DNA of 40,387 nucleotides from Shigella phage SFPH2. The notes beneath the pieces were generated by a model that searched no databases, was not told where the DNA came from, and was given only the letters and a program-made list of their open reading frames with translations. The translations under genes and the position numbers were made by a program. Positions 5,186 through 37,857 of this stretch are shown piece by piece; within the stretch, counting starts at the first letter, position 1, and every line of letters starts with the position of its first letter. The stretch is taken from sequence record MH464253. One strand, 5' to 3'.

Positions 5186-5208
5186 CTTCCCTATAGTGAT
5201 AGTTAAGT
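5186..5208 (-). promoter_or_regulatory. Phage RNAP promoter (phiOR position): ACTTAACTATCACTATAGGGAAG
   Basis: Full consensus match between terminase large subunit and gene 19.5. Confidence 0.85.
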
Positions 5209-5301
5209 CCCTTTCCCTTTAGAATCATTAAATTACGAGAGATACCTAACGCACTACTTACTGCTTATACATGCAGATTTCATGCGTAGGTATTCATTAG
5301 G

Positions 5302-7065
5302 TTAGTGGAACTTGACGTAGGACCCTAAGCCTAAGTCATCATCTGTATTGAACTGGACCCGGACCCCATTGTCCCAATAGTCAGTCTCGATGGACTTAAA
5401 GCCTTTCCGAGGGTCTTCCATCTGTTCCTCAAGCCACTCTTCTGTTACTTCACGCTGTCCCTTGACGGCATCCTTCGCCATAGACTCTACGAAGAACTGT
5501 ACACCGATAGCCAGAGCATCAAGTCGGTCGTCATGAGCCAAGGCTCCACGTTCACGGCTGATACGGGTCATCTGGTAGAACAGAGAGTAGATAGGGTTAC
5601 GGACACCATCCTTATCGGCAGCAGTCTGGTAGTCAGACACAATGGTCGAGGAGTTCACGATGAGTCGGTGAGACCCCATGATAGGCTCCAGAACGTCGCA
5701 GATGCGCAGCTCCTTCTGACCCTTACTCTTGACCTCGGTAACTGCTGCCGGGTGAATACGGGCCGCTACAGGCTTGAAGAGTTCGAGATACATACCGTCA
5801 CCGAAGTTACCTTCAATCACGTACTCGTTGACCTTCCACTTACGACCAATCTTAGCCAGAGCCTCCAGCGTAGAGTCCTCATAGCCACCACGCATACCAC
5901 CCGCTTCCATCACGAAGATGTAGCCGTTGAGCTGGTACAGAACCGCATACCCGGTCTCATCCTTACCTCGACCACTTGGGTCAATGACCAGAATCTTCTG
6001 GGTGTACGAACTGAAGGCAGAACCTACAGTCTGATACGTATGGTAGGAATCGCCCATGAGTCCCACGTTAGGAACGTCATCACGCTTGTTCTGAAGGTTC
6101 GGCAGCCACTGGTATACCATAGGGCTAGACTCAGGGTCCAAGTCCGCTACGATAAGGTCACGCAGCTTCAGAGGGTATTTCTCGGCGTCCCCTAGGTTGG
6201 GGTTCAGCATGAACTGTAGGGCGAAGCCCGCCTTACCATAAGACAGCTCACGCTCCTTCAGGTCCTCATCGTCGAAGCGAACCTCATCGGTCGGTCTCCA
6301 GTAGTATCCCTCAGGGTCAGACTCCAGCTCGGCCTGAAGCATAGGAGCCAGACGGTCTCCGTAAGACTTCCAGTCCTTCTCATCACGTGGGTAGCGGGCA
6401 GGCCAGATGGTAGTTGAGTAACCACGACCCTCAAGCTGTCGATACAGGGTCATCTCGGTCTGAGGAGTACCCAGATAGATAACCGTACCACCCGGCTTCA
6501 GGATTGCGTCGAACTCTTTCACCAGCTCTGACAGTCTGTCACGTGCCGCCTGAGTAGCGGAGTTACCGGGGACCTCTACGTCATCGGCAATCAGGATGTC
6601 AGCACGGCTACCAGTTAACTGACCAGTGATACCAACGGACTTAACCGAGGGAGAGTGGTCAGGCTTGGCAGGCCCTACGTCAAAGCTGATTACTGCGTCT
6701 CGCTGCCCCTGCTTAGGCTTCAACTCTTGGAGCTGAGGCATGAGGTCGATGATACGCTTGATGAAGATTGAGTTCGCATCGGCTCGTTCCTTTGAGGCCG
6801 ACACAATCATGAACTTCAAGTCCGGGTTATTCCATAGCTTCCAGACCACGAAGGCACACGTAATGAAGGACTTCCCGATACCACGGAATGCCTGCAAGAT
6901 GAAGCGCCTGTTGTCCCCAGCCGATAGCTTCTTCGCCATGTCAATCTGACAGCGAGTCGGAACAGGAAGTGACAGAGCTTTCCACAGAACGAACAGGAAG
7001 AACACGAAGTCTGACTTCATACGGGCAGTCATAAGCGCCTGACGCGCTGCTAAGTCTTGACTCAA
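5302..7065 (-). CDS. gp19: Terminase large subunit (DNA maturase B)
   Basis: 587 aa; Walker A-like GIGKS, colinear with T7 gp19 (586 aa). Confidence 0.95.
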
Positions 7066-7511
7066 GGTTTCACCTCCTTCTCTTGCTGCAAGGCCCTGAT
7101 GGTCCCCTGCAAGGCCTTAATCCATTCGTCGCCTTTCAGTCCGATGGCGATAAGACGCTTAGCATCTCGCTCGTCAAGGTCGGCGTAGCCATCAACGAGG
7201 CATCGACCGTCACTCTGGACCGTTCCACTGGTAGGCTGGACTCTGATGCGCAGCCGCTTGTTATCGCGGTTAAGGTCAGCAATAATCCTATCAGTAGAGC
7301 CTTCCAGCTCGGACATCTTGTCTTGGTATTCTTTTGCAATACGTGACACCTCTCGCTGTACCGAAGTGCGCGTTCTGTCCTCTGCCTGTAGTTTAGTGAT
7401 GTACTCATCGTTTACCTTCGCCTCCCACTTTGTGTCCGCTACCCAGTAGCCTGAACAGAACAGGAGTCCTGCCACCAACCACGGGAGCGCTTTACGTAAA
7501 AGTTCGAGCAT
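7062..7511 (-). CDS. gp18.5: i-spanin (Rz-like, gp18.5)
   Basis: [19 protein letters not shown]-terminal TMD, ...[21 protein letters not shown]...DERDAKR matches T7 gp18.5. Confidence 0.9.
7136..7408 (-). CDS. gp18.7: o-spanin (Rz1-like lipoprotein) embedded in +1 frame of gp18.5; true start probably internal (TTG before KNTKTR)
   Basis: Embedded ORF with signal-like [17 protein letters not shown] followed by Cys (lipobox-like). Confidence 0.55.
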   Translation of the reverse strand: MSTSLNYRQRTERALRYSERCHVLQKNTKTRCPSWKALLIGLLLTLTAITSGCASESSLPVERSRVTVDASLMATPTLTSEMLSVLSPSD

Positions 7512-7560
7512 AGTTGCCCTCCTGTTTTAAAAGAATTCACGTAGAGTCACCTACGTTAGT

Positions 7561-7615
7561 GTTAATCATGAAGGCCACCCACTACATGTAGTAGATGACC
7601 TTGAGTCTAACACTT
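7561..7615 (-). promoter_or_regulatory. Conserved RNA hairpin C (R18.5-position candidate RNase III site)
   Basis: GGUCAUCUACUAC-AU-GUAGUGGGUGGCC, 13-bp stem with three G-U wobbles; flanks AGACUCAAGG / CCUUCAUGAUUAAC. Confidence 0.55.
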
Positions 7616-7877
7616 ACTGTACACCATACCCGGTGTCATTGTCCTCAGTAGCTGAGAGCACCTTATCGTACTCCCTGTTCAACGCCTCCATGTCAGCTAA
7701 CTGTTTCTCATCCACAGACACCTTGCTGAGTACAAAGTTGTGGCGAGCTAGCAGCTTCTCGATAGCGTTGTAAAGCTGAGGTGAACGCTTGGTGTCATCC
7801 CGCAGGTCTTGCAGCATGAGTCTAGCACGTTCAGTGTCCAGCATTAACAGGAACTTCTCTAAGTCCATCTGCGTCAT
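7614..7877 (-). CDS. gp18: Terminase small subunit (DNA maturase A)
   Basis: 87 aa; ...RSPQLYNAIEKLLARHN.VLSK matches T7 gp18. Confidence 0.9.
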   Translation of the reverse strand: MTQMDLEKFLLMLDTERARLMLQDLRDDTKRSPQLYNAIEKLLARHNFVLSKVSVDEKQLADMEALNREYDKVLSATEDNDTGYGVQ

Positions 7878-8068
7878 GTCTTACCTCCGCTCTTAATCGT
7901 CTTGTAAATCAGTACGCCAATCTGCACCACGGTATACGCGATAGCAGCGACGTAGAACCATTCGTTGAGTGTTAACCCAAAGAAGAACCGACTGGCACCA
8001 TCAGCCGCAGCGGTCCCGACGATAGGCGAGGCTTTGAGGACCTCATTCTTGAAGTCGAACTCAATCAT
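7874..8068 (-). CDS. gp17.5: Holin (class II, gp17.5)
   Basis: ...FFFGLTLNEWFYVAAIAYTVVQIG... near-identical to T7 gp17.5 core. Confidence 0.92.
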   Translation of the reverse strand: MIEFDFKNEVLKASPIVGTAAADGASRFFFGLTLNEWFYVAAIAYTVVQIGVLIYKTIKSGGKT

Positions 8069-8114
8069 ACTACCTCCATTGTTAAACGGGTCGTCCTTGA
8101 CCCAAAGTTATCGG

Positions 8115-10622
<2,508 letters not shown>

Positions 10623-10662
10623 TTAAGTGTTGAATTAAATGGGAGCCTATGGTAGCACTCCC

Positions 10663-10685
10663 GTTTCCTATAGTGATAGTTTAGT
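10663..10685 (-). promoter_or_regulatory. Phage RNAP promoter (phi17 position): ACTAAACTATCACTATAGGAAAC
   Basis: Consensus match overlapping gp16 stop, upstream of tail fibre. Confidence 0.85.
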
Positions 10686-13600
10686 CCTTGATGTGAATAC
10701 CTTGTTCCTCAAAGGTTCCCAGTAGGAGCTTCTGAGTAATCGGGTCGTTCGGGACTAGCTCGCGGAAAGTGTTATACATCCCGGTCATGTAGTCTCGTTC
10801 GTTCACTCTGGTATCAGCCTTCAAGTATCCAGCCAAGTTGTAGGCCGAAGCACCAACGTTAGCGGCGTATCCAAAAGCAGGAACCTGCTCAAGGAAGTTA
10901 CCGACCACATTCATCACCGGGTCACTCTTCGCAGCGCCATAGGTAATAGCACGTTCAGGTTTCTCGGTAGGTGAGCGCGGAAGGATTGACGAGCGGAGCA
11001 TCTTAGTGTCCTCATACCCAGCGATTCCACCCAGAATGTTGGCTACCCCAAGAGGACCACCTAAGTGGGAGCTACGGGACAGAGCCGCATAGCCAATCAT
11101 TGTCGGGTTAAGGGCTTGCTTCAGATACTCACGGTCACGACCGTCCTGCATAGCGTAGGCCTTGATGTGCGCCTGAGCCATGTAGTACATTCCAGCCAGA
11201 CCCATAGACATAACCGTTGATAGTGCAGCGTCCATCGCTCGGTTGTTCTTGGTGGCATTGTAGAAGGTACGCATGGTTCGACCGTTGATGGACTTGATAA
11301 CGAAGTTCTTAAACTGCAAGACAGTCTTCGCCATCGGTCCATACGCCTTGGCATCCATGTTGCTCAGCTTGTGCGGACGAATCATGGTCTCGTCAGCGAT
11401 GGCATCACCCATACGCCAGAGGTCCATAGCCCTTGGGTCCTGACTGAACGCCTTCTTATCCTTGATGGTGTACTTCCCGTCTGGGCCACGAGTCACTGAC
11501 TCACGGATGAGGGACTTAATGCCCTTCCACTGCTCGTCCGAAATACCAGCGGTCTTCAACCAGCGGTCATCAAACTTACGCTTACTTCCAGTCAGGCTGT
11601 GCTCCACGATGTCAGACAGGAAGCCTTGACGTCCAGCATCCAGCAGGTAGTTCGTCGTGCCGTTCAGGACCTTCGTAAACGGAGAGCGGACCGCAAGTTC
11701 ACCAGTGTAATACTTGGCAGAACCCAAAGCCGTAGCTGCTGGTTTACTCAAGGCACTGTACGCCCGCAGGCGGTCTATGACATCCTGTTTTGACGGACGG
11801 ATTGAGTCGTCCAGTTCCTTACCGAAGATAACATTGTGCAGGTCCTTAATCTCTGATGCCCCTACCTTCTTGTTACGGAAGGCTAGGTCACGGAACATAG
11901 GTACTCCATGTAGCAATGCACGAACGTTACCACGAGCCAGCATACCACCAATCTCCGTTAAATTCTGAACACCCATGTAGGCATTCTTAGCGAAGAAGGA
12001 CAGGTCTGTCATTGTGCGCATCACTGTAGCAAAGGCAGCATCGTCTGCACCATCACGTCGAGCACGACCAGTCAGAATCTTCAGGGTGTCACGCAGTGTT
12101 GAGACTTCACCCTTCAGTTTACCGTCATCACCAGCACGGTTCATCAGGGTCTCTACTGCGTCCTTCATCTCCTTCGTGGTCTTACCTGTCCCAGCCATGA
12201 TAGCAATGTCCCCATTGACTCGACGGTTGTACGCCGGGACAATCTTATCCATGTCCCACTCACGGAGGCTGTTCACACTGAACGGTTGACCGTTTGGCAG
12301 GATGATAGACATATCGCTATCGAACAGGTTACGGGCCTCAAGGAAGTTGTTGTTCTCCAGACCCACCAGACCGTTGATGTTCTCTTCCATGACAGACGAG
12401 CGCTCGAATAGGTCGGTGTGAGAGATACCGTAAGCCTTATCGTTGGCGTACTTCTCGACCGCAGCCGCGAGTCCTTCTGGAGTCAGATTAGGGTCAGCTT
12501 CCATCAAGGCCTCATCCACCCGCGCTTTGACCTCAGGTCTTGACGCATAGCTCGTTAGCCAAGACTTCTTGATTGCCTCCTGTAGCGCCTCAGGGCTTCC
12601 AAGCTCCTTGATGTACAGCTCCTTCATCTGGTTGCTGTAGACGTGAGGAACGTATGTCCCCTTGAAGCGGCTGCCGGGGAAGATAGACTTAGCGTCCACC
12701 CGACCGAACATCGCGGGGTTCTCCATCATCTCACGCTTGGCGTCGAACTGGTTCTTCAGCAGGTCGTAGACCTTCAGTTCGCCCGGAGTAAGCTCAGACT
12801 TCAGGTTTCCACTTCCGTCCTCGATAGCCAGAGCTACACGCTGGTAGATGTCCTGACGGAAAGCCCCTGTGTCCCGGTTGAAGTTGGTCTGGAAGTACGG
12901 GTCCTTCAGAGCCTCAGTCACCGCATCGTCGATGTCGTTGTAGAACCGATGGTCCACTGCACGAAGTCGCTCGAATACGTCTGACGCTGTAGTCCCAATC
13001 TTCCCGCTCGCACCCGACTGCATACCTGTAGGGGAACGCACCAAGTCAGCGGCAAGTCCGCGAATCTCAGGGTTCTCAGACCTCAAGAGTTTCAAGCCAA
13101 TCTCGGTAAGTCCACCAAGGTTTACACCAGCAGCAGCACGCTCAGGCTCAATCACCTCGTCGAAGACTTGGCGTGTCTTAGGGTTCAGAGGGTTCTCACC
13201 AATCAGGATTGAGCCATCTTCCAGTCGAACACTTCCCGGCTCGTTCGGAACGTCAGCAAACTTAACGCCTTGGTGACTGAAGGTCTGCTCTCCTTCACGG
13301 ATTGGTAGACGCGACAGGTCCTGACCGTCAACGTTACGAGCAGTCTCACGTGCCTCAAGACGTGTAGCTGGACCAGCGAACTCATTGGTAGACTTTCCAA
13401 GAGCCTTGCCAAGAGCGTCACCGATAGCAGTCATGCCACCACCGAAGAGCGCACCGCCCATAATTGCCTCAGACACGTGAGCATCGCCACCAGCAACAGA
13501 GGTACGAGCAATCTCAGACGCGCCAGCCAACGCACCAGACTGAGCAGCCACGGTGAACATCTTGTTAACCAGCTTACCGCCTTTACCTACCTGTCCGGCA

Positions 13601-14577: not shown

Positions 14578-14582
14578 TGTTA

Positions 14583-16865: not shown

Positions 16866-16876
16866 TGGTCCTCCTG

Positions 16877-17919: not shown

Positions 17920-17947
17920 AAAGTCTCCTATAACTTAAAGGGCCTAT

Positions 17948-17970
17948 AGTCCCTATAGTGATAGTTAAGT
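17948..17970 (-). promoter_or_regulatory. Phage RNAP promoter (phi13 position): ACTTAACTATCACTATAGGGACT
   Basis: Consensus match between gp12 and gp13. Confidence 0.85.
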
Positions 17971-17994
17971 TGAAACTATAGGCCATTCAATTAG

Positions 17995-20364: not shown

Positions 20365-20375
20365 ATCACCTCCTA

Positions 20376-20956: not shown

Positions 20957-20996
20957 CAAAAAACCCCTCAAGCACCCGAAGGCACCCAAGGGGTTT
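20957..20996 (-). terminator. Intrinsic terminator (Tphi-like) after capsid gene
   Basis: Minus-strand AACCCCTTGGGTGCCTTCGGGTGCTTGAGGGGTTTTTTGC: GC-rich stem with G-U wobbles then U6; close to recalled T7 Tphi. Confidence 0.8.
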
Positions 20997-22409: not shown

Positions 22410-22432
22410 TCTCCCTATAGTGATAGTTTAGT
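22410..22432 (-). promoter_or_regulatory. Phage RNAP promoter (phi10 position): ACTAAACTATCACTATAGGGAGACC
   Basis: Full consensus; leader begins GGGAGACC and folds 5' stem-loop, SD GGAGA before capsid ATG. Confidence 0.9.
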
Positions 22433-23405: not shown

Positions 23406-23428
23406 TGTTCCTATAGTGATAGTTAAGC
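23406..23428 (-). promoter_or_regulatory. Phage RNAP promoter (phi9 position): CTTAACTATCACTATAGGAACAA
   Basis: Consensus match overlapping portal 3' end. Confidence 0.85.
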
Positions 23429-24991: not shown

Positions 24992-25005
24992 TTGTCACCT
25001 CCTGC

Positions 25006-25651: not shown

Positions 25652-25655
25652 AGTC

Positions 25656-25880: not shown

Positions 25881-25889
25881 AGTCCCTCC

Positions 25890-26162: not shown

Positions 26163-26224
26163 CTTAAAGTCTCCTCTTAAAGTATTAACTTAAGTTTATC
26201 TTATAGTCATAACTTAGGTCCTAA

Positions 26225-26247
26225 AGTCCCTATAGTGATAGTTTAGT
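26225..26247 (-). promoter_or_regulatory. Phage RNAP promoter (phi6.5 position): ACTAAACTATCACTATAGGGACT
   Basis: Full consensus in the gp6/gp6.5 intergenic region; preceded by GGGCC-loop-GGCCC hairpin (plus 26346-26363). Confidence 0.88.
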
Positions 26248-26369
26248 GTTTCACCCATGGGTAGCTGTAGGTCGATAGGTTATGACTATCGGTTAAACTC
26301 AATGCTTAGGACGGTTTGTCCCACTGAACGTGTACAGTAAGTAAAGGGCCAGAAGTCCGGCCCAATACA

Positions 26370-27239: not shown

Positions 27240-27678
27240 CGTCCAGACCTCCCGTAGCCATAGTGACCGTAGCTGGCATCAAGGAAACTTTAGGCTCCTC
27301 AATACGTTCCAGAGTTACCTCAGGCTTCAGCCATTTGTTGGCGAACTCATGGGCCATGTCATTGTCCTCTGAGTTGAGGTGTGACATCAGGCTCCAGAAG
27401 TTTGAAGACATCTCGGTCTCCTTCTCAACCGGGCGATATACGCCCCAGTCATTTACCTCTGAGCCGTAGCTGTCGCCCCACATACCACTGGCTACGATGG
27501 TCAGGCCGATGAACGGACGCCACTCGTAAGCCTCAGAGGGAGACTCGGCGTATGACTCAACGTCCTTCTCGGTCAGGGTGTATGACCAAGATGCGTAGAA
27601 CTCAGCGTACTTTCGGTGCTCCTTCTCGCACTCGCCCATTTCAAGGACCAGCTCTTTCAGACTTTCAGGTATCTTCAT
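27229..27678 (-). CDS. Acidic, aromatic-rich hypothetical protein (149 aa) at the gp5.9 locus
   Basis: ATG at 27678 in ATGA overlap with gp5.7 stop, GGAGG SD; about 29 Asp/Glu vs 13 Lys/Arg, many Trp/Tyr; track start at 27732 lies inside gp5.7. Confidence 0.6.
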   Translation of the reverse strand: MKIPESLKELVLEMGECEKEHRKYAEFYASWSYTLTEKDVESYAESPSEAYEWRPFIGLTIVASGMWGDSYGSEVNDWGVYRPVEKETEMSSNFWSLMSHLNSEDNDMAHEFANKWLKPEVTLERIEEPKVSLMPATVTMATGGLDDGF

Positions 27679-27884
27679 AGACAGCCTCCGTGTTGATTCA
27701 GGAACTTGGTGCCAGCAGCGGTAATCTCCCACGCACCGTTGTTACGCCCATCCATAGACAGGCAGCTTAGATGTCCACGACTCGCAGCCTCAGCCACAAG
27801 TGCAGCGTTGTTGCGCACATAGTTGGACTGAAAGGTCTTCGGGCAGGACTTAAGGGCCGCTAGGACCCGTAAGTATTCACTCAT
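27675..27884 (-). CDS. gp5.7: gp5.7 protein
   Basis: 69 aa; MSEYLRVLAALKSCPKTFQSNYVRNNAALVAEAASRGH.SCL...GRN.GAWEITA.GT.FL...GGC near-identical to T7 gp5.7. Confidence 0.92.
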   Translation of the reverse strand: MSEYLRVLAALKSCPKTFQSNYVRNNAALVAEAASRGHLSCLSMDGRNNGAWEITAAGTKFLNQHGGCL

Positions 27885-28165
27885 TGCTTGACCTCGAATC
27901 GCAGGTTGGATACTCCGAACTGGTCATCACCAAAGGCGTCTACCAGCTCTTCCTTGACGGTCTTCTTGACGGCAATTTCAAGGGCAGACTCAGGACCTGA
28001 CTCGATTGCTGTTTTGACCAGAGCCAACTGAAGTCCATCCAGCTTCTCACCCTCAGCATAGGCTTTAGTCATCTCAGCAAGCTGACGACACCTTGTCTCT
28101 TCTTCCTTTGAGCTAACAACCATCTTCAGGTCAAAACTCACACGAATACGTTTAGTAATAGCCAT
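27881..28165 (-). CDS. gp5.5-position protein (94 aa)
   Basis: Synteny and size similar to T7 gp5.5 (H-NS-binding protein); sequence only weakly recalled. Confidence 0.55.
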   Translation of the reverse strand: MAITKRIRVSFDLKMVVSSKEEETRCRQLAEMTKAYAEGEKLDGLQLALVKTAIESGPESALEIAVKKTVKEELVDAFGDDQFGVSNLRFEVKQ

Positions 28166-28170
28166 TAGTG

Positions 28171-28653
28171 TTACTCCTGTTTAAATTGTCCGTACTTCTT
28201 GTCAGACGTTAAGTTTATACACATAGAGGTCTTGACTCTAACCTCTTCAGTGAACGGTATAAGCCAGAGGCAATCCTGATAAACAACCGCTAGTAGGTCG
28301 ATGTCTCCCGGACTGTAAGTTGGCTTACCGCATCCTCCCAGCCTTACCTGTATGCTATTACAGTTCTTCAGCTTCGTTCCGGTCTTGACCTGAACCCTAG
28401 TAAGGGTCCCGTCTATATCGACCACCAAGTCTGCCTTTGACTGCGTGAATGCTGGGAGGAATACTTGATGCCCTTTGGCTGTCAGCCTATAGCTTACATA
28501 TAGCTCACTAGCAGCACCAGTGAAGTGCTGGGACTTTCCGTCAATGGCATTCTTTCCACGTTGGTCCAATCTTACCCTCCGTATCAAGTTCACACTTGAA
28601 GTTATAGAAGCGTCCGACCTCACGCATAGCCTCTTGAGCAATACGGACGACAT
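28171..28653 (-). CDS. Hypothetical protein overlapping DNA polymerase 3' end (160 aa); possible PD-(D/E)xK-like motif
   Basis: Only ATG (28653, SD AGGAGA) lies 113 nt inside gene 5 in another frame; SELYV...ADLVVDIDG...VQVK spacing resembles E..D..(E/Q)xK nuclease core. Confidence 0.45.
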   Translation of the reverse strand: MSSVLLKRLCVRSDASITSSVNLIRRVRLDQRGKNAIDGKSQHFTGAASELYVSYRLTAKGHQVFLPAFTQSKADLVVDIDGTLTRVQVKTGTKLKNCNSIQVRLGGCGKPTYSPGDIDLLAVVYQDCLWLIPFTEEVRVKTSMCINLTSDKKYGQFKQE

Positions 28654-30712
28654 CTTCTGCTATCTCCTGAGTACGACATGCAATCTGCAATTCATCGTGA
28701 ATCCAAGCCATTAGCGCAAAGTCACCGTCCCATCCGTTACCATAGCCAGCCTCTTCAAGTTTCTTCTCAGTCAGTACCATCCAGTGCTTACATACCACCG
28801 CACCGTCACCCTGAAGTAAGGCGTTAAGTGCTGAGTGTGGAGACCGGATGTGGATACGTCTACCGTCCAGACCTTTAAGCCAGCGGCGTTTCCACTTCAC
28901 GATGTTCTCACCGTCTACCCACTTGGACTCGGAGATGAGCGTGTTTTGCACCGCCTCTCGCAGGTCCTTGATAGCTGGTGTACCCTCAATGAATTTCTTC
29001 ATCAGGGCGGAACCTTCCTTCTTACCACCGCCAACTATCAGCCCAATCTTCGCGGCCCCTGCACCATACAGGAACGCATAGATGAACGTCTTGGCGTTGT
29101 TACGGAAAGCATCGTGGTCGTGGTTAGACTTGTCGCGTGGGATGTTAGGTGCTAACCCGGCGTTGACCGCATTAGCCCAGTGGATGTCTCCATCGACCAC
29201 AGTCTTCGCATATTCACCACCATCGAACGGGGACGCACGGTTCCCCAGACAGCGGAGTTCAAGACCTGAGGCATCGACGCCCACCTGAATCCAAGGGTCA
29301 GGCTTACCAGCGTTCTGGTTCCACTTGGCACCGAAAGCGCTACGGCATATTTCACCCCAAGGAGCACCGTTAGCCGGGACCTGAGCCATGTTCGGGGAAC
29401 TGTGAGTCGCACGTCCGGTTACAGCACCACAGGGGTTAATCGACCCGTGCATCCTTCCGTCAGGACCCACAAGTCGAAGCCATGCGTTCTTACCTTCAGC
29501 CGCCTGACCAATGCGCTTCTGGACCACCAGATACTCACGGACCAGCTCTACGCAAGCCTGAGCTTCTGGGTCTGCCAGCTTAACGTGCTCCAGAGTTTCG
29601 TCATCACACTTAGGCTTCCCTGTATCCGTGAACTCAGTAGGCTCCCAGCCCCGGTCCATCAGAACCTTAGCTAAGTGGTCGCCACTACCCGGATTAAACT
29701 CAACGAAGGTAATCGGTGTGAACGGTGCGCCTTCCATCGTATCTCGTGAGTCTCGTTCGCAAGGCTCCAGACCTAAGCGCTGAGCTTTGTTCTTCGGCTT
29801 CTTGAAGATTGCCCCTACCTTCGGGTAGATGACTCGCGGGTATTTCGGCAGGTCTACCCCGGTTCGTGGGTGCTTGAAGAACTCTTTGCCACCCTTAGGT
29901 GAATACCAACTACCGAACGTCGACCGCAGCTTATCCAAAAGCTCAGCACGTTTGACTGATAGCTCACGATACAAGCCCTCGACTATCTCCGAGTTCATCG
30001 GGTAGCCGTTACGTTCCATCTTAGCGCATGTCCACGCAGCATCATGTTCGAGACGCAGTGCGTACACAGCCTCAAGTCCGGCCTCAGGAGACCCAAAGTA
30101 GAACTTGTCAGTCAGGAACTTCTTGAACAAGGCCAAAGTGACCACAACGTCTTGGACGTTATAGTCCAGCATCTCTTGGCTTGGGAATAACCACTCGTCA
30201 CCAGCCTTATATTCGATACCTTCTGCCTTGCACTTGGCAATGTAATCGGTCTTGTACTCACCCTTCATCTCACCGAGACGGTAGCCCCATGCTTCAAGAG
30301 ACTGTCGTCCCATCATCTTAGGGGGGAGACGACCAGCTTTCACAGCACCCATGTCCGAGAACTTAATGTTCGGGTACATCAGGCGGCCCATGACAAGTGT
30401 GTCAATCATCTTGTGCTTCGGGAAGTTGAAACGTTTACCGAAATACTTACGCTTCAGGATGTCAATAGCCGGGACGTCATAGTTAATCCCGTTATGGAAG
30501 ACCAGAAGCCCATGCGGCGTGGCTGCAATCTCTTCTACCTTCTGCACATACTCTTTGAAGCCGCCGACGATACCTACCATCGGAGCTACCCCATACTTCA
30601 GGGTCTCATTCGACTCGGCGTTAATCAGGACCCCACAGTGGAACTGAGAGACGGTATCAAGAAGACCGTTGGTCTCGATGTCCGAACCCCAGATATTCTG
30701 TAAGTCAATCAT
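28541..30712 (-). CDS. gp5: DNA polymerase (family A, T7 gp5-type)
   Basis: 723 aa; DIE.N.LL, FHNG..YDVPA, YNVQDVVVT, HPRTG..LPKYP, IFKKPKNKAQR, GVDASGLELRC, AKTFIYAFLYGAG, WIHDE.Q..CRT, ends TWKECH as T7 ends WAICH. Confidence 0.97.
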   Translation of the reverse strand: MIDLQNIWGSDIETNGLLDTVSQFHCGVLINAESNETLKYGVAPMVGIVGGFKEYVQKVEEIAATPHGLLVFHNGINYDVPAIDILKRKYFGKRFNFPKHKMIDTLVMGRLMYPNIKFSDMGAVKAGRLPPKMMGRQSLEAWGYRLGEMKGEYKTDYIAKCKAEGIEYKAGDEWLFPSQEMLDYNVQDVVVTLALFKKFLTDKFYFGSPEAGLEAVYALRLEHDAAWTCAKMERNGYPMNSEIVEGLYRELSVKRAELLDKLRSTFGSWYSPKGGKEFFKHPRTGVDLPKYPRVIYPKVGAIFKKPKNKAQRLGLEPCERDSRDTMEGAPFTPITFVEFNPGSGDHLAKVLMDRGWEPTEFTDTGKPKCDDETLEHVKLADPEAQACVELVREYLVVQKRIGQAAEGKNAWLRLVGPDGRMHGSINPCGAVTGRATHSSPNMAQVPANGAPWGEICRSAFGAKWNQNAGKPDPWIQVGVDASGLELRCLGNRASPFDGGEYAKTVVDGDIHWANAVNAGLAPNIPRDKSNHDHDAFRNNAKTFIYAFLYGAGAAKIGLIVGGGKKEGSALMKKFIEGTPAIKDLREAVQNTLISESKWVDGENIVKWKRRWLKGLDGRRIHIRSPHSALNALLQGDGAVVCKHWMVLTEKKLEEAGYGNGWDGDFALMAWIHDELQIACRTQEIAEDVVRIAQEAMREVGRFYNFKCELDTEGKIGPTWKECH

Positions 30713-30724
30713 AATGTCTCCTAT

Positions 30725-30768
30725 AGTCTAATCATAAAGGCCACTCGAAGTGAATGGCCTTGAGTCTA
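30725..30768 (-). promoter_or_regulatory. Conserved RNA hairpin E directly downstream of promoter (transcript 5' stem-loop / candidate RNase III site)
   Basis: GGCCAUUC-ACUUC-GAGUGGCC with G-U wobble, flanks AGACUCAAGG / CCUUUAUGAUUAG as in hairpins C and D. Confidence 0.5.
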
Positions 30769-30788
30769 TCCTACAGTGATAGTTAAGC
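30766..30788 (-). promoter_or_regulatory. Phage RNAP promoter variant upstream of DNA polymerase: CTTAACTATCACTGTAGGATAGA
   Basis: Consensus with one substitution (TGTAGG for TATAGG). Confidence 0.7.
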
Positions 30789-31316
30789 CTTAGGTGGAGT
30801 CATGTCCGGGACCAATGGCTCTATGGTCTCCATAGGTTCAACTACAGGACTCGCGCCAGATGATACGCGCACTTCTGGGTAGCTTTGTTCCATGCTACTG
30901 ACTGGAACCGCTGGTCCTTCAGGATGTTGCTCAACACTGTAGCTTCGTGGTGATACCACTTCGCCAGCGAAAGGTGATACTTGGACTTTAACTTCTCGCA
31001 CAACCTCTTTAACATCTTGGTGCTCCTCGAATGGGTAATAGGACAGAACGTCACCTTCCAGCTTGAACCCTACGAGGCCCATCTGGTCGAGACGCTGAGT
31101 GATTTGATACTTCGTGCTGTCAACCTCTTGGTCTCCCAAGTTGCCACGCAGCGTCCCAATGTCAATCGACCCTTGGACCATAGCCGTAGAGATGAACAGC
31201 AGCGCCCTGCCCAGAGTTCGACCAGTGCAGCGAGAGGTGAAGACTTCAAGGCCCTCCTTCGGGCCAAGCTCAAGTTGCAATTCGGTCAGGGTCTTACCGT
31301 TGATTAAGTTTCGCAT
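30783..31316 (-). CDS. Hypothetical protein (177 aa) between primase-helicase and DNA polymerase; Pro/Val/Ser-rich C-terminal tail
   Basis: ATG at 31316 (MRNLINGK) with AGGAGA SD; track start at 31382 is inside gene 4. Confidence 0.6.
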   Translation of the reverse strand: MRNLINGKTLTELQLELGPKEGLEVFTSRCTGRTLGRALLFISTAMVQGSIDIGTLRGNLGDQEVDSTKYQITQRLDQMGLVGFKLEGDVLSYYPFEEHQDVKEVVREVKVQVSPFAGEVVSPRSYSVEQHPEGPAVPVSSMEQSYPEVRVSSGASPVVEPMETIEPLVPDMTPPKA

Positions 31317-31360
31317 TATCCACTCTCCTCTTAAGTGCTGCTTCAAGCCTAGCCTCAGGA

Positions 31361-33067
<1,707 letters not shown>

Positions 33068-33114
33068 TCACTCCTTAGTCAATAGTGCGAACAAAGGGAC
33101 AAGACTCATGGTCT

Positions 33115-33137
33115 CATCCCTAAGGTGATAGTTTAGC
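33115..33137 (-). promoter_or_regulatory. Phage RNAP promoter variant upstream of primase-helicase: GCTAAACTATCACCTTAGGGATG
   Basis: Consensus with 2 substitutions; transcript starts with GGGAUGAGAC-CAUGA-GUCUUGUCCC stem-loop. Confidence 0.65.
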
Positions 33138-33345
33138 TGAAGAAGCCTTTCAGTTGCTCGGCTTTCTTGTCAAGACCTTTGGCACGTAGGCCAGCGTCCA
33201 GAGACTTGATGCGCAGACTATCCGCTTCCGCAGCAGCCGCTTCCGCACCTTTAGCCGCAGCAGATGCGACTTTTCGTTCCACACTCGCAGCACGAGCATA
33301 GCCACGCACAACCAGACGACCCAGAAATTCAATAAACTTAATCAT
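33133..33345 (-). CDS. Hypothetical protein (70 aa), Ala-rich
   Basis: ATG with AAGGAG SD 7 nt upstream, immediately after amidase gene. Confidence 0.55.
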   Translation of the reverse strand: MIKFIEFLGRLVVRGYARAASVERKVASAAAKGAEAAAAEADSLRIKSLDAGLRAKGLDKKAEQLKGFFS

Positions 33346-33359
33346 GTTAGTGCTCCTTG

Positions 33360-33818
33360 TTAGCCTCGGTCGGAAGTGACCAGTTCGTTAGTATTCAGCC
33401 AGCGCTGCAAGTCAAAACTTGGGCAAGCCTTTGGTGCTACATCGTGGTGGGCCTTGATGTCTGCCTGAGGGTACAGTGCCTTCAGTTCAGCCAGCTTGTT
33501 TCGTAGAGCGCTCATCTGAGCAGGAGTGAAGTTGGCTTCAAACTTGCCCTTGGCGTCAATTCCACCTACAAGGCAGACGCCTACTGACCGGGAGTTCCAG
33601 TCCTTAACGTGGGACCCTACTACATCGACCGGGCGGCCTTCTTCCACAGTGCCATCACGCTTGATGACGAAGTGATAGCCTACGTCCAGCCAGCCCTGCT
33701 GCTTGTGCCACATGCGGATAGTGTCTACCCCGATGTCCTGAGACGGTTTGGTCGCACTACAATGGACGAAGATTGCGTCAGTTACTGTACGCGGTTTGAA
33801 CTGAACCTTACTTACCAT
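33360..33818 (-). CDS. gp3.5: N-acetylmuramoyl-L-alanine amidase (T7 lysozyme, RNAP inhibitor)
   Basis: 152 aa; VQFK.R..TDAIFVHCSATKPSQ..GV..IR.WHK.QGWLDVGYHF.IKRDGTVE.GR, GVCLVGGID.KGKF.ANFTPAQM, HH.VAPKACPSFDL.RW...NELVTSDRG match T7 gp3.5. Confidence 0.97.
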   Translation of the reverse strand: MVSKVQFKPRTVTDAIFVHCSATKPSQDIGVDTIRMWHKQQGWLDVGYHFVIKRDGTVEEGRPVDVVGSHVKDWNSRSVGVCLVGGIDAKGKFEANFTPAQMSALRNKLAELKALYPQADIKAHHDVAPKACPSFDLQRWLNTNELVTSDRG

Positions 33819-34032
33819 TGTACACCACCAGCTCGACGATTACGAGATTCAGGTGAGACTTGAAGCGCTCGCTAACGGTCGTGTGCATCTGGAGGCGCTT
33901 ATGGTTGAAGACATGCGAGTTGCTAATCTTCACGTACACTTCGTCCGGTCGACCATGCACGATGAACGCGTAGCCCACCGGGATTTTATCAATGGTCAGT
34001 CGCTCGCGGACTACCTGCACTTCTTTAGTCAT
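33808..34032 (-). CDS. Hypothetical protein (74 aa) inserted between endonuclease I and amidase
   Basis: ATG overlapping gp3 stop with AAGGAG SD 7 nt upstream; no equivalent gene recalled in T7. Confidence 0.5.
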   Translation of the reverse strand: MTKEVQVVRERLTIDKIPVGYAFIVHGRPDEVYVKISNSHVFNHKRLQMHTTVSERFKSHLNLVIVELVVYNGK

Positions 34033-34481
34033 TTCTTAGCTCCTTTCTTCGGGATGAGTATACCTGAGGGCAGACGCACAGTCGCCTCTTTCAGCCACTC
34101 AACCGGGATAAACTTGTCGGCAAACTTAAAGCCGTTCTTTTCGCACCATGCGCCATACGTGGTCGGGGACCCTTTGTACAGCTTGGAGCGGGAGGACGAG
34201 AACACGAACCGGATGTCCAGCTCAGGGTGTTGCTCGCGCACCAGCATATGCTTCTTACGGTCCTCACTGTCGAAGATACCTTTGGTCTCGACGATGATTC
34301 CGTTCGGAAGGATGAAGTCTGGTGTGTACTTGTGGTCGGAAGCCGGAATCACATAGTTGATATAATGGCTTTCGTACTCCGCTTTGACGCCGTTCTGCTC
34401 CAGCCACTGCTGGTTCTTGGCCTCAAGTCCAGAGCGGTAGGCACCCACAGAGTGCCCCCGTTTTGGTGTCCATGCAGCCAC
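34029..34481 (-). CDS. gp3: Endonuclease I (Holliday-junction resolvase)
   Basis: 150 aa; FRSGLE, YVIPAS.H.YTPDF.LPNGI.VETKG, DRKKH.L.REQHPELDIR.VFSSSR.KLYKGSPT.YG..CEK.G.KFADK.IP.EW.KE match T7 gp3. Confidence 0.96.
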   Translation of the reverse strand: MAAWTPKRGHSVGAYRSGLEAKNQQWLEQNGVKAEYESHYINYVIPASDHKYTPDFILPNGIIVETKGIFDSEDRKKHMLVREQHPELDIRFVFSSSRSKLYKGSPTTYGAWCEKNGFKFADKFIPVEWLKEATVRLPSGILIPKKGAKK

Positions 34482-34483
34482 GA

Positions 34484-35182
34484 TTAGAAGTCGTAATCGC
34501 CACCGGACTCAGAGTCATCACCACCCTCGGCATCTTCACCGAAGTCGTCAGACCCGAAGTCACCGTCAGTAGACGCTTTGTAGCCACCGGAGCCGATGTC
34601 TTCATCGTCACCCCAGCCACCATCGCCACCAGTGCCATCGCCGGACCACTCTTTCAGTTCGACCAGCAGGCAGGACTCCAGTTGCAGCTTCACGCTAGCA
34701 CCAGTCGCAGCGTTCCACTTGAACGGCAGGACTTTGAACTTGACCTTCAGCTTAGACCCTGAGCCAATATTCGGGACGTCACGGATGAGTTTAGCATCGG
34801 TGTCGTAGAACCGTAATACGATAGGCTCGGACTTGCCGTCTTTCAAGTAGGACGCAAAGCATTTGAACTTCAGGGTAACAGTGCCGTCACCGTTCTCAAT
34901 CCACGGCATGTCGCCTTCACGTGGTTCGATAGGCTTCTTGCCACGCTGAACCTGAGGCGGGTTCTTCTCGTGGTCTGCGAGTGCTTTTGCATACGCATCG
35001 TCGTGAATCTTCTGCAAGACATCAATCATCTTGCGGACCTTCGGGTCGCTCAGGTCGAATGTCAGGTTGACTTTATGCTCACCGCGCTCGTTGTACTTGG
35101 TGTCTGCTTTGTTAAGCCATGCGTAAGGCTCAACGATACCAGCTACCGGAGTGGTGAAAGTCTTCAGTTGCTCTTTAGCCAT
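34484..35182 (-). CDS. gp2.5: Single-stranded DNA-binding protein
   Basis: 232 aa (same as T7 gp2.5); EPYA, ANPP.V.RGKKP..P.EGDMP...NGDGT.T.KFKC.AS, IGSGSKLKVK..L.P.KWN...GASVKLQLES..LVEL, acidic C-tail ending DF. Confidence 0.96.
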   Translation of the reverse strand: MAKEQLKTFTTPVAGIVEPYAWLNKADTKYNERGEHKVNLTFDLSDPKVRKMIDVLQKIHDDAYAKALADHEKNPPQVQRGKKPIEPREGDMPWIENGDGTVTLKFKCFASYLKDGKSEPIVLRFYDTDAKLIRDVPNIGSGSKLKVKFKVLPFKWNAATGASVKLQLESCLLVELKEWSGDGTGGDGGWGDDEDIGSGGYKASTDGDFGSDDFGEDAEGGDDSESGGDYDF

Positions 35183-35211
35183 CGGTGTAAATCTCCTAGT
35201 TAAAGTTAAGG

Positions 35212-35234
35212 TGTTCCTAAAGTGATAGTTTAGT
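35212..35234 (-). promoter_or_regulatory. Phage RNAP promoter variant (phi2.5 position): ACTAAACTATCACTTTAGGAACA
   Basis: Consensus with one substitution, overlapping gp2 stop, upstream of SSB. Confidence 0.7.
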
Positions 35235-35394
35235 CGTGCAGCTCAGGTCGGATGCGGCCTACCACGAAACCAGCATCTTCATACTCCTGAGACTTTAGGG
35301 TCGCCTCGTCCAGAGACTTGGCGTATACCGGGACCTCAAAGGACTGAACGCGACCCTCAAGCTCCACGATGTACTTCTTTTCTTCAAGGCTCAT
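35230..35394 (-). CDS. gp2: Inhibitor of host RNA polymerase (T7 gp2-like)
   Basis: [34 protein letters not shown] matches T7 gp2 [35 protein letters not shown]; ATG at 35394 preferred over track GTG at 35412. Confidence 0.85.
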
Positions 35395-35472
35395 AGCCCT
35401 CTCCCCTTCCACAGGTTATACATTTCGAGATAGTCTGTGTTACCTGTCCTCTCGAACATCATCTCGCACCAT

Positions 35473-35780
35473 TCACTCGGAGTCATGACTACCAGCCTTA
35501 CTCTGAGCTACCATACGAGCACCGAAGAACTCGACTTTCTCTGCATCGTAAAGACCATCATCTTTAGCGCCAGCTTTACGCAGACCCAAGGTCCGCTGGG
35601 CGGCTCGACGCCATATTGCCTTGAACGCATTGCCTTCCGCGAAGTTCATACCAAGAGCTTCGATGATGTCGTTGCACTCAGCGATGTACTCAGGTCGACC
35701 GGGGGTAGTGGTGCTCTTTATGTGGACCTGATAGTAGTCAGCAGAACCGCCAGTGTAGATAGGCTGTTCATTTTAGTCAT
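35473..35780 (-). pseudogene. Apparent frameshifted gene: SD-ATG (35780) opens a 20-codon frame, while ~100 protein-like codons continue in the adjacent frame to TGA at 35473
   Basis: AAGGAGG 5 nt before ATG ACT AAA ATG...TAA; other frame reads NEQPIYTGGSADYYQVHIK...AIWRRAAQRTLGLRKAG...SHDSE; one extra A in the A4 run (plus 35771-35774) would fuse them. Confidence 0.4.
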
Positions 35781-36033
35781 TGACCACCTCCTTCACAAAC
35801 TCAATGAACAGACGAACGCGAGGCCACTTGGTGTAGACCACAGGTACGCTGGTCTCACGCTTCTGGCGAGCCTCTTCAGCTTTGCCCGGAGTAATCAGAG
35901 CGAAGACTGTAGGTGACAGCTTAATGGCCTTCCCGAAGTAGCCCAGCTTCTCGTTGCGCTTAATGCAAGCGAACGGGTTGTGGGACAGATGGAAGGTATT
36001 GGAATAACGGTTGAACATTAAGTTCTTAAACAT
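35773..36033 (-). CDS. Hypothetical protein (86 aa, gene 1.6 position)
   Basis: ATG with AAGGAGG SD 7 nt upstream. Confidence 0.65.
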   Translation of the reverse strand: MFKNLMFNRYSNTFHLSHNPFACIKRNEKLGYFGKAIKLSPTVFALITPGKAEEARQKRETSVPVVYTKWPRVRLFIEFVKEVVND

Positions 36034-36061
36034 GGTCGGCCTCCTTAGGTCGAAGTTATTG

Positions 36062-36084
36062 TTGTCCTATAGTGATAGCTTAGT
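36062..36084 (-). promoter_or_regulatory. Phage RNAP promoter (phi1.5/1.6 position): CTAAGCTATCACTATAGGACAAC
   Basis: Consensus match after ligase and early terminator. Confidence 0.8.
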
Positions 36085-36172
36085 CGTCTAGGCACTCCCC
36101 TACCAGCCACGTAAGGCCGTAGACCAGCAGGCATGACAACAAGAAAACTAATGTAATATAGAGCATAAGCAT
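36080..36172 (-). CDS. Small hydrophobic ORF (30 aa, gene 1.4 position)
   Basis: GGAGGA SD 8 nt before ATG; MLMLYITLVFLLSCLLVYGLTWLVGECLDD; below track cutoff. Confidence 0.35.
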   Translation of the reverse strand: MLMLYITLVFLLSCLLVYGLTWLVGECLDD

Positions 36173-36193
36173 GAGTATGGTCCTCCAGAATGC

Positions 36194-36224
36194 GAAAAGA
36201 CCCAGCAGTACGAAGACCACTGGG
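36194..36224 (-). terminator. Candidate intrinsic early terminator (TE position, after ligase)
   Basis: CCCAGUGG-ucuucgua-CUGCUGGG stem (with G-U pairs) followed by UCUUUUCG. Confidence 0.55.
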
Positions 36225-36235
36225 TTGACGTTTAG

Positions 36236-37276
36236 TTAACTCTTAACGGTTGGATTGTCTTCAGTTCCACGCCAGCACTTGAAGCTGGGATGACGAAGGG
36301 ATCCATCTGGGAACCGCTCCATGAAGAGGACTTCACACTGCCAGCCGTTGAAGAACTCCTCACCTTCTGGGTACTCTTTTACCGCTGCGGTGAACTCGTC
36401 CTTCTGTGTTTCAGTCAGACCACAGGCGTTAACCACCATGCCATCCTCCAGCAGAACCTCGAAGCCGATGACCTTACCTTCGTTGGCCTTACCCGGAGTC
36501 CCCCACACGAGGCCACACACGGTCCCGTCTACGGTCTCCTCAGGCTTCATCTTCCACATGCCTGACTTCTTGCCACGCTTGTACTTACCCAGCGGGTCCT
36601 TGACTACCAGACCCTCGTGTCCTTCCAGACGCTTCTCTTCGTACAGGGAGTTGAGCGACTCAAGGTCATAGACCGTGTGTGACTCAGACAGAACCCAGTC
36701 GATTTCCGGGAAGTATTTCTGGAGGAGAGGGACGATAGCTTCGGCCTTCAGGCGAGTGACGCTATGGATAGGACCTTCGGCTTTCGGGTCGTTGATGACG
36801 TTAAGGTCGATGACCCCGTAGACGATTACCTTGATGTGTTCTGGGTCCAGTCTGAATGGTGTAGTCTTTGACTTCAGGTCCCAGTCACCATCGTGGAAGT
36901 CGTAGTTCTTAGACTTGACGTACTTCGTTCGGATAAGACCGGATGATGTGTTGAAGTCCACACCCTTGACCATCACCTCGCCATCAATCATCAGGCCAGA
37001 TACTTCATGTCCTGCTTGCTTCAGGAACCATCGCCAGTCGGACGCACGGCACGCTCCGATGTCCTGACCAACTGTTGACAAATGGTCTAAGGCCGGAAGC
37101 GTCTTAGACTCACGGCTTAACCATTCAGTTCGCCCATCAGGGAAGACAGGAATATTCAACCGCACACCGTCATACTTCACTTCAGCTTCCAGCGACCCGG
37201 CAGCTTCCAGTGCTTTCTTAACGCCAGACTCAGAGTAATCTACAGCGCGGTGCGGGTTAGTTTTGATAGTTGTCAT
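36236..37276 (-). CDS. gp1.3: ATP-dependent DNA ligase
   Basis: 346 aa; IKTNP..AV...ES..KKAL, adenylation motif KYDGVR, MIDGEVMVKGVDFNTSSGL.RTK, FPEI.W, EGHEGLVVKDP...YKRGKKSG.WKMKPE, DGSLRHPSF match T7 ligase. Confidence 0.96.
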   Translation of the reverse strand: MTTIKTNPHRAVDYSESGVKKALEAAGSLEAEVKYDGVRLNIPVFPDGRTEWLSRESKTLPALDHLSTVGQDIGACRASDWRWFLKQAGHEVSGLMIDGEVMVKGVDFNTSSGLIRTKYVKSKNYDFHDGDWDLKSKTTPFRLDPEHIKVIVYGVIDLNVINDPKAEGPIHSVTRLKAEAIVPLLQKYFPEIDWVLSESHTVYDLESLNSLYEEKRLEGHEGLVVKDPLGKYKRGKKSGMWKMKPEETVDGTVCGLVWGTPGKANEGKVIGFEVLLEDGMVVNACGLTETQKDEFTAAVKEYPEGEEFFNGWQCEVLFMERFPDGSLRHPSFKCWRGTEDNPTVKS

Positions 37277-37293
37277 CGTTAATGTCTCCAGAA

Positions 37294-37581
37294 TTAAAGG
37301 AATCGACCAGTGTAGTCGTTGAACTGTTTGTTAAACCAAGTGGCAACCGCTACGGTCTGCACATCTTCGTCATGAATATTCGGGTACTCCGTGAAGTCCT
37401 TCTCGATGAGGACCTCTTTCGTATGGCTGTGGACTATAACCGCCCGGACGCAGTGCCTGTTCATCATTGGGTCGAACCAAGTGCTTACCACTGCGTTATA
37501 GTCGGTCTCGGACTGCCAGTTGTGAATAGCTCTGCGGAGGGTGTTCAGGTTTCCACTATGCGCTCTTGAGAACATGCCCAT
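37294..37581 (-). CDS. gp1.2: gp1.2-like protein (host dGTPase inhibitor in T7)
   Basis: 95 aa; SGNL, HDEDV and W..W features similar to recalled T7 gp1.2; synteny after gene 1.1. Confidence 0.7.
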   Translation of the reverse strand: MGMFSRAHSGNLNTLRRAIHNWQSETDYNAVVSTWFDPMMNRHCVRAVIVHSHTKEVLIEKDFTEYPNIHDEDVQTVAVATWFNKQFNDYTGRFL

Positions 37582-37584
37582 GTT

Positions 37585-37764
37585 TTACGCTCCTACGAAA
37601 TACTTCTCTTGGTTAACCAGCGAGTCTTTACCTTCAGCGTTACGGAAAGCACCCTTGACACCACCGCCACGCTTGGTCTTGTTCAGCTTGCGTCCCTTCG
37701 GAATGTAGCCTTCAGTCTGCTGACGTTCACGGATGCGCTCGAAGTTGATAGTGTTCTGATACAT
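37585..37764 (-). CDS. gp1.1: gp1.1-like small basic protein (59 aa)
   Basis: MYQNTINFERIRERQQTEGYIPKGRKLNKTKRGGG...; KGRKLNKTKR identical to T7 gp1.1 motif; AGGAG SD; below track cutoff. Confidence 0.75.
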   Translation of the reverse strand: MYQNTINFERIRERQQTEGYIPKGRKLNKTKRGGGVKGAFRNAEGKDSLVNQEKYFVGA

Positions 37765-37792
37765 GGTGTAGCTCCTGAGTGAATTGGTTAGG

Positions 37793-37838
37793 GTTAATCA
37801 TGAAGGCCACGACTTTGAGTCATGACCTTGAGTCTAAT
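37793..37838 (-). promoter_or_regulatory. Conserved RNA hairpin D (R1.1-position candidate RNase III site) at 5' end of phi1.1 transcript
   Basis: AAGGUCAUGACU-caa-AGUCGUGGCCUU: 12-bp stem with two G-U wobbles, 3-nt loop. Confidence 0.55.
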
Positions 37839-37857
37839 CCTATAGTGATAGTTTAGA
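37835..37857 (-). promoter_or_regulatory. Phage RNAP promoter (phi1.1 position): CTAAACTATCACTATAGGATTAG
   Basis: Consensus match upstream of gene 1.1, overlapping the stop of the 156-aa ORF. Confidence 0.85.

Follow-up and report, generated by a model that had tools for sequence, protein, structure and literature searches.

We analysed the 40,387 nucleotides (nt) of sequence record MH464253, from Shigella phage SFPH2 (the window), for a repeated promoter-like motif and for the phage RNA polymerase that would recognize it. The minus strand is the coding strand, and the polymerase gene (gene 1) is split across the ends of the window. The N-terminal 303 residues, which contain the region of the AT-rich recognition loop, are encoded at 1..909 (minus strand); the C-terminal 590 residues, which contain the specificity loop (...TTRLNLLFLGSFNLQPTV..., encoded at about 39040-38980), are encoded at 38615..40387 (minus strand). 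Joining 909..1 to 40387..38615 yields an uninterrupted reading frame for an 893-residue polymerase that spans the joined ends. The window is therefore a complete genome in circularly permuted and reverse-complemented form. It holds a single copy of the direct terminal repeat of about 190 base pairs (bp), at about 4615..4426 (placed by similarity to the ends of phage Ro45lw). The motif, aCTaAACTATCACTATAGGra, is matched at 12 sites, all on the minus strand. The 12 repeats are almost certainly promoters of the phage polymerase, and the promoter/polymerase pair almost certainly belongs to a specificity class that is already characterised from the phages K1F and Ro45lw.

The closest relatives by megablast have 91–96% nucleotide identity to the window. 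These are Shigella phage ESh23 (96.0%) and Enterobacter phage EP1 (95.1%), which are the two closest matches, along with Cronobacter phages Dev2 and GW1 and Citrobacter phages SH4 and SH5. SH4, K1F, and Ro45lw are classified as Kayfunavirus in their records, and Dev2 and SH5 are described as K1F-like. Also, the genes of the window are in the same order as those of K1F and Ro45lw, from gene 1 through gene 19.5. Judging by these similarities, the phage is a Kayfunavirus (the K1F-like genus of T7 relatives).

A sequence-only reading of this DNA had reported a family of 12 minus-strand promoters, and our motif scans recovered all 12 at the positions it gave. With up to three mismatches to the 21-mer quoted in that reading (ACTAAACTATCACTATAGGGA), we found 11 matches, all on the minus strand, while 0.00 were expected from 100 dinucleotide-preserving shuffles. 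The remaining site, which begins at 30788 (GCTTAACTATCACTGTAGGAT), has four mismatches to ACTAAACTATCACTATAGGGA and was recovered by direct reading and by a position-weight matrix (PWM). The PWM was built from the 12 sites and scanned on both strands of the window. The 12 sites score 29.9–37.0 bits, and the best of all other positions, with both strands counted, reaches 10.0 bits; nothing falls between 10 and 29.9 bits, and no site is on the plus strand. Across 50 shuffled windows, the best score was 20.7 bits. Given the gap of 20 bits below the twelfth site, we consider the 12 sites to be the closed and full set. The same scan found no phiOL-type site near the left end.

The information content of the motif is about 31.6 bits over positions -17 to +6, where +1 is the first G after TATA. 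In the alignment of the 12 sites, positions -16, -15, -13, -11 to -5, -1, +1, and +2 are invariant, so that every site has TCAC at -8 to -5 and AGG at -1 to +2. The initiation core at -7 to +2, CACTATAGG, is exact in eight sites, and the other four have a single deviation at -4, -3, or -2. The initiation region is thus T7-like, as had been claimed. Positions -12 to -8 are ACTAT in 11 of the 12 sites and GCTAT at 36084. The sequence-only reading correctly stated that this specificity region differs from those of T7 (CGACT) and T3 (ACCCT), and the T7 and T3 sequences that it gave agree with the T7 and T3 records. However, the bases that it gave for -12 to -8, CTATC, lie at -11 to -7, one base out of register; the correct sequence is ACTAT. 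With up to three mismatches, the window has no match to the T7 consensus promoter and none to the T3 consensus promoter.

The 12 sites lie 34–180 nt upstream of the start codons of genes 1, 1.1, 1.6, 2.5, 4, 5, 6.5, 9, 10, 13, 17, and 19.5, at T7-syntenic junctions, and all 12 are co-oriented with the genes. The proposed placements at phi1.1, phi1.6, phi2.5, the gene 4 region, phi6.5, phi9, phi10, phi13, phi17, and phiOR agree with the annotated genes of K1F and Ro45lw. We describe the sites in order of transcription (all on the minus strand). The site before gene 1, ACTAAACTATCACTAAAGGAC (987..1007; 31.9 bits), has its +1 at 990, 81 nt before the ATG at 909; Ro45lw has the identical 21-mer before its gene 1 (2400), and K1F has an orthologous site (2474). 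The sequence-only reading had listed this site as a weaker variant. It is a real site, but it would be the promoter of gene 1 rather than part of the right-end region, and the interval given for the family, which began at 5186, excluded it. The phi1.1-type promoter, TCTAAACTATCACTATAGGAT (37837..37857; 32.4 bits), has its +1 at 37840, 76 nt before a small gene that starts at 37764; its orthologues are at 5552 in K1F and at an annotated promoter in Ro45lw (5483-5505). The phi1.6-type promoter, ACTAAGCTATCACTATAGGAC (36064..36084; 31.9 bits; +1 at 36067), is the site with G at -12. It lies 34 nt before the gene 1.6 homologue and corresponds to the annotated phi1.6 of Ro45lw (7178-7200). The phi2.5-type promoter, ACTAAACTATCACTTTAGGAA (35214..35234; 34.9 bits; +1 at 35217), overlaps the end of gene 2 and lies 35 nt before gene 2.5, which encodes the single-stranded DNA-binding protein; phi2.5 is annotated in Ro45lw. 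The putative gene 4 promoter, GCTAAACTATCACCTTAGGGA (33117..33137; 29.9 bits; +1 at 33120), is 56 nt before the primase/helicase gene. The K1F site at 10866 has the same CACCTTAGGGA variant before gene 4, while the orthologous Ro45lw site (10130) reads CACCTAAGGGA. The putative gene 5 promoter is the GCTTAACTATCACTGTAGGAT site (30768..30788; 29.9 bits; +1 at 30771), 59 nt before the DNA polymerase gene; Ro45lw has the identical 21-mer at 12445, and K1F has no counterpart.

The remaining sites precede late genes. The phi6.5 promoter (26227..26247; 36.5 bits; +1 at 26230) is the exact consensus, ACTAAACTATCACTATAGGGA, and lies 68 nt before gene 6.5; phi6.5 is annotated in Ro45lw. The phi9 promoter, GCTTAACTATCACTATAGGAA (23408..23428; 34.7 bits; +1 at 23411), overlaps the stop codon of gene 8 and is 93 nt before the scaffold gene. 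The phi10 promoter (22412..22432; 36.5 bits; +1 at 22415) has the exact consensus with GA after it (GGGAGA). The major capsid gene starts 103 nt further on, and the site matches an annotated promoter in Ro45lw (20967-20989). The phi13 promoter (17950..17970; 35.5 bits; +1 at 17953) is 34 nt before gene 13, and its 21-mer, ACTTAACTATCACTATAGGGA, is the same as the minimal promoter of Ro45lw (PMC12272871). The phi17 promoter, ACTAAACTATCACTATAGGAA (10665..10685; 37.0 bits; +1 at 10668), overlaps the stop codon of gene 16 and is 55 nt before the tail-fibre gene; the identical 21-mer is found in K1F and in Ro45lw, where phi17 is annotated. Finally, the phiOR-type promoter (5188..5208; 35.5 bits; +1 at 5191), which follows the large terminase gene and is 180 nt before the gene 19.5 homologue, also has the sequence of the Ro45lw minimal promoter.

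We also examined a degenerate promoter-like sequence, CCTAAGTTATGACTATAAGAT, at 26218..26198 (minus strand), 29 nt downstream of phi6.5. It scores 10 bits and lacks the invariant TCAC and AGG, and we did not count it as a promoter. Its region folds no better than shuffles (z = -0.29), and CCTAAGTTATGACTATAAGAT is conserved in K1F and Ro45lw.

With the same PWM, K1F gave 11 sites and Ro45lw gave 12; each is on the coding strand, and the gene junctions are those of the window. Every one of these sites (11/11 and 12/12) pairs with a site in the window. Several of the variants are shared as well: AGCTATC is found at phi1.6 in all three genomes, and the window and Ro45lw have CACTAAAGGAC before gene 1 and CACTGTAGGAT before gene 5. 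At several sites (for example, downstream of phi9 and phi10, and around phiOR), the flanks have diverged and the motif was kept, which points to selection acting on the motif. In the Ro45lw record, seven of the sites carry a promoter annotation, and four of these are named (phi1.6, phi2.5, phi6.5, and phi17). A note in that record also cites MH464253.1:16877..17464 (complement), which are exactly the coordinates of an open reading frame in the window. More broadly, IMG/VR has 74 stretches with the 18-mer CTAAACTATCACTATAGG, from about two dozen contigs that are nearly all 39–40 kb long. In another Kayfunavirus genome (2026), the consensus CTWAACTATCACTATAGG was read as a promoter (PMC13298934).

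The 893-residue polymerase is 99% identical to that of SH4, 98% identical to that of Ro45lw, 94% identical to that of K1F, and 63–64% identical to those of T7 and T3 (over the full length). A polymerase of at least 90% identity is encoded in 214 phage records in the phage collection. Numbered as in T7, the residues of the specificity hairpin are T744 T R746 L N748 L L750 F L G S754 F N756 L Q758 P T V761. At the same columns, T7 has Q744, M750, Q754, R756, and I761, and T3 additionally has D748. As had been predicted, the recognition loop is distinct: it differs from T7 and T3 at positions 744, 754, 756, and 761. S754, N756, and V761 are common to the polymerases of this phage, K1F, Ro45lw, and SH4, where T7 and T3 have Q, R, and I; R746, N748, and Q758 are conserved with T7. 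A 45-residue string that includes the loop, PDGFPVWQEYRKKDTTRLNLLFLGSFNLQPTVNKGSKKELDKHKQ, is found without change in Ro45lw and SH4. Compared with T7 and T3, the polymerase also has insertions of 2 and 11 amino acids beside the AT-rich recognition loop (at about residues 90–125).

Base contacts in T7 promoter complexes are usually given to R746, N748, R756, and Q758. From this we infer which loop residue reads which base: the change from R756 to N fits the change at -9 and adjoining positions. The specificity class of T7 (CGACT, with R756 and Q754) does not describe this phage, which has N756 and S754 in the loop, and neither does that of T3 (ACCCT, with D at T7 position 748), since the loop has N748; as described above, matches to both consensus promoters are absent from the window at up to three mismatches.

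The K1F and Ro45lw systems have been studied experimentally. Takatsuki et al. (2025, J Biol Chem; PMC12272871) purified the polymerase of Ro45lw (there "Ro45Iw"), mapped +1 to a G, and trimmed the promoter to a minimal ACTTAACTATCACTATAGGGA that was transcribed in vitro by the purified enzyme; bases could be removed at the 3' end only, and none were reported as removable at the 5' end. This minimal promoter is one base off the consensus of the window. Temme et al. (2012; PMC3458549) grafted the K1F hairpin into the T7 polymerase in place of Q744-I761, exchanged -12 to -7 of the T7 promoter for the K1F consensus, and obtained an orthogonal pair. Their variant is tabulated as 754S, 756N, and 761V with the promoter ACTAT (PMC11880802, Table 2), which are the residues and bases that we see in the window. 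The K1F fragment was developed further by Segall-Shapiro et al. in 2014 (PMC4299498), and the native K1F polymerase with its PK1F promoter has served for orthogonal expression and mutagenesis in Halomonas and E. coli (PMC12218169).

The sites of the window, their strand and positions, their orthology to K1F and Ro45lw sites, and the loop identity come from our own analysis; promoter activity and the position of +1 rest on published work on the Ro45lw enzyme, which is 98% identical. By analogy with that enzyme acting on an identical 21-mer (PMC12272871), transcription would start at the predicted +1. The sequence-only reading had proposed that the phage has a specificity of its own and possibly offers a new orthogonal pair, and it named an identical, already characterised promoter and loop as a match that would refute this. 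There is such a match: the loop is identical in Ro45lw and SH4, and the promoter is the Ro45lw minimal promoter. Because both promoter and loop match the characterised K1F/Ro45lw system, the claim of a specificity of its own is refuted. No new specificity is on offer, as the K1F class is already described, engineered, and biochemically characterised. The idea of a T7-orthogonal polymerase/promoter pair is sound, but it was already realised, by K1F-loop grafts since 2012, by native K1F systems, and by the Ro45lw enzyme in 2025. What our analysis adds is a full promoter map for this Kayfunavirus genome, with 12 sites and their predicted +1 positions, which has little import beyond annotation.

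We propose that the 893-residue single-subunit RNA polymerase of the phage binds each site of 21–23 bp and begins RNA synthesis at the first G after TATA. The binding half of the site, at -12 to -8 (ACTAT), would be read in the major groove by the hairpin of the specificity loop, and the initiation half, CACTATAGG, is shared with T7. Our proposal explains why the sites differ from those of T7 and T3: the hairpin has S754, N756, and V761 where T7 has Q, R, and I. The 12 repeats would then be the middle and late promoters. Phi6.5 and phi10 are exact consensus, phi13, phi17, and phiOR are near consensus, and phi9 has two deviations; all of these precede late structural genes. The more deviant copies (before gene 1 and at phi1.1, phi1.6, phi2.5, gene 4, and gene 5) precede genes for DNA metabolism. 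The promoters of T7 fall into class III and class II, and we infer a parallel split here, with the late near-consensus copies corresponding to class III and the deviant copies to class II.

Several promoters lie in or next to hairpins. The phi13 promoter covers the loop and the 3' arm of a 13-bp hairpin, GGCCUAUAGU...ACUAUAGGCC (17938-17985, minus strand; -21 kcal/mol, z = -3.4), whose arms are conserved in K1F and Ro45lw. This hairpin is the reason that three copies of ACTATAGG are clustered at 17938-17985. It could form only in read-through RNA, and we presume that it is the counterpart of the R13 RNase III site of T7. Strong hairpins, ACTCAAGGTCAT...TGGCCTTCATGATT, are also found directly downstream of phi1.1 (about 37790-37830, minus strand) and of the gene 5 promoter (about 30735-30765, minus strand). 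Their conservation extends to K1F and Ro45lw, and they look very much like the T7 sequence that follows phi1.1A, which we take to be the R1.1 RNase III site. Separately, a Tphi-like intrinsic terminator, with the stem CCTTCGGGTGCTTGAGGG followed by a run of T, lies at 20982..20965 (minus strand), between gene 11 and a short open reading frame after gene 10.

Given these hairpins, we considered that the repeats might be mainly RNase III processing sites, or else replication-origin elements or recombination hot spots, that merely resemble promoters. The 13-bp stem at phi13 and the R1.1-like structures after phi1.1 and the gene 5 promoter fit this idea, and the phi1.1 and phiOR promoters of T7 also act in replication initiation. 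However, the conserved unit is the 21-mer and not the hairpins, which vary between sites, and all copies point in the direction of transcription and lie directly upstream of genes. Furthermore, the same 21-mer drives in vitro transcription with a near-identical enzyme, and any extra roles would add to promoter function instead of replacing it. We therefore find this explanation highly improbable. That the motif recurs by chance or through low-complexity sequence has essentially no probability, with 11 matches against an expectation of zero in the shuffles and a gap of 20 bits below the twelfth site.

If the repeats are promoters, the pair might still have a specificity that is new even in comparison with K1F and Ro45lw, and so provide a new orthogonal pair. 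Within the hairpin, position 750 is L in this phage and M in K1F, and four residues after the hairpin, K1F has T for S. In the engineered K1F fragment, a change at position 750 (M750R) affects activity (PMC4299498). On the other hand, the whole 45-residue loop stretch is identical to Ro45lw and SH4, the promoters match those of Ro45lw at the same junctions, two sites in the window are the experimentally defined minimal promoter of Ro45lw, and the K1F promoters keep the same -16 to +2 core despite M750. A new specificity is thus very unlikely. We have no result at odds with assignment to the K1F/Ro45lw class, although a few caveats apply. Besides the difference from K1F at position 750 (where the characterised Ro45lw enzyme has L, like the window), about 2% of the polymerase residues differ from Ro45lw, although none of these are in the specificity loop or the intercalating hairpin; one of the changes, M for L, is in an insertion beside the AT-rich recognition loop. 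Also, the deviant sites at 1007, 33137, and 30788 are putative promoters, as judged from their similarity to the others.

We also considered whether native Kayfunavirus polymerases have features that the engineered versions lack. All 35 sites of the three genomes (the window, K1F, and Ro45lw) have C at -16 and T at -15, while T7 has A at both positions. The engineered PK1F retained the T7 sequence TAATA at -17 to -13, where native sites have aCTaA (PK1F sequence from PMC11880802, Table 2), so the native enzyme may have an extra upstream determinant. If its N-terminal domain reads CT at -16 and -15, then orthogonality to T7 would be greater for native enzymes than for the grafts. Furthermore, K1F and Ro45lw share the promoter that immediately precedes gene 1. 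This suggests that the polymerase can transcribe its own gene from that site, unlike in T7, which has no such phage promoter: immediately before gene 1, the T7 record lists the E. coli C promoter only. Across the whole genus, the combination of a second, upstream specificity determinant that is absent from the T7(K1F) loop grafts and a gene 1 promoter that would give positive autoregulation is possible, but we lean somewhat against it.

Other genes in the window distinguish this phage from its relatives. The SAMase noted in the sequence-only reading is there: a SAM lyase is encoded at 3265-3717 (minus strand; PF23780, E = 1.2e-39), in the place of the Ocr-like gene of K1F and Ro45lw. Upstream of phi1.1, at 37853-38323 (minus strand), is a homologue of T3 gene 1.05 (PF25755). 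Directly after the DNA polymerase gene is an open reading frame for a PD-(D/E)XK endonuclease (28171-28653, minus strand; PF11645); in K1F and Ro45lw, the endonuclease within or after gene 5 is instead of the HNH type. The tail-fibre protein gp17 (832 amino acids; 8115-10613, minus strand) resembles those of K1F and Ro45lw in its N-terminal 145–251 residues only, and its differing receptor-binding part, by this comparison, is probably the usual module swap for host range. Rfam (at gathering thresholds) and a tRNA scan gave no matches in the window. A scan of the early region gave 12 candidate sigma-70 sites (6.3 ± 2.5 expected from shuffles), and a terminator scan gave 4 candidates (5.1 ± 2.1 expected).

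Compared to T7 and T3, the promoters of this phage share the 23-bp architecture, the core CACTATAGG at -7 to +2, and the start at G. They also share the gene-by-gene placement (phi1.1, 1.6, 2.5, 4, 6.5, 9, 10, 13, 17, and OR), and there is a Tphi-like terminator after gene 10. They differ in the specificity region, which is CGACT in T7 and ACCCT in T3 but ACTAT in the window (we checked this on the T7 and T3 records), and T7 has AA instead of CT at -16 and -15. The polymerase, at just 63–64% identity, has T744, S754, N756, and V761 in its loop and the insertions of 2 and 11 amino acids. In the genome, gene 1 is immediately preceded by a promoter, and we found no phiOL-type site.

K1F is much closer. 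Its polymerase is 94% identical and has the same S754, N756, and V761, its promoters have the same ACTAT at -12 to -8, and its 11 genomic sites, at syntenic positions, have the same -16 to +2 core despite M750. K1F differs in having M750 and the T for S after the hairpin, in lacking a promoter before gene 5, and in carrying an endosialidase tailspike and the Ocr-like gene 0.3. Ro45lw differs from this phage in having an Ocr-like gene in the early region instead of the SAMase, and in the C-terminus of its tail fibre. At five sites, Ro45lw has C at -17 where the window has A, G, or T, and the phi9, phi2.5, and gene 4 sites differ elsewhere too. Nevertheless, Ro45lw is the closest of the characterised systems: its polymerase is 98% identical, with 100% identity across the 45-residue loop stretch, and its 12 sites are at the same junctions, five with identical 21-mers and three more that share the 21-mer of a pair partner (phi6.5/phi10 or phi13/phiOR). 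Its minimal promoter, ACTTAACTATCACTATAGGGA, is the sequence found in the window at 5208 and 17970.

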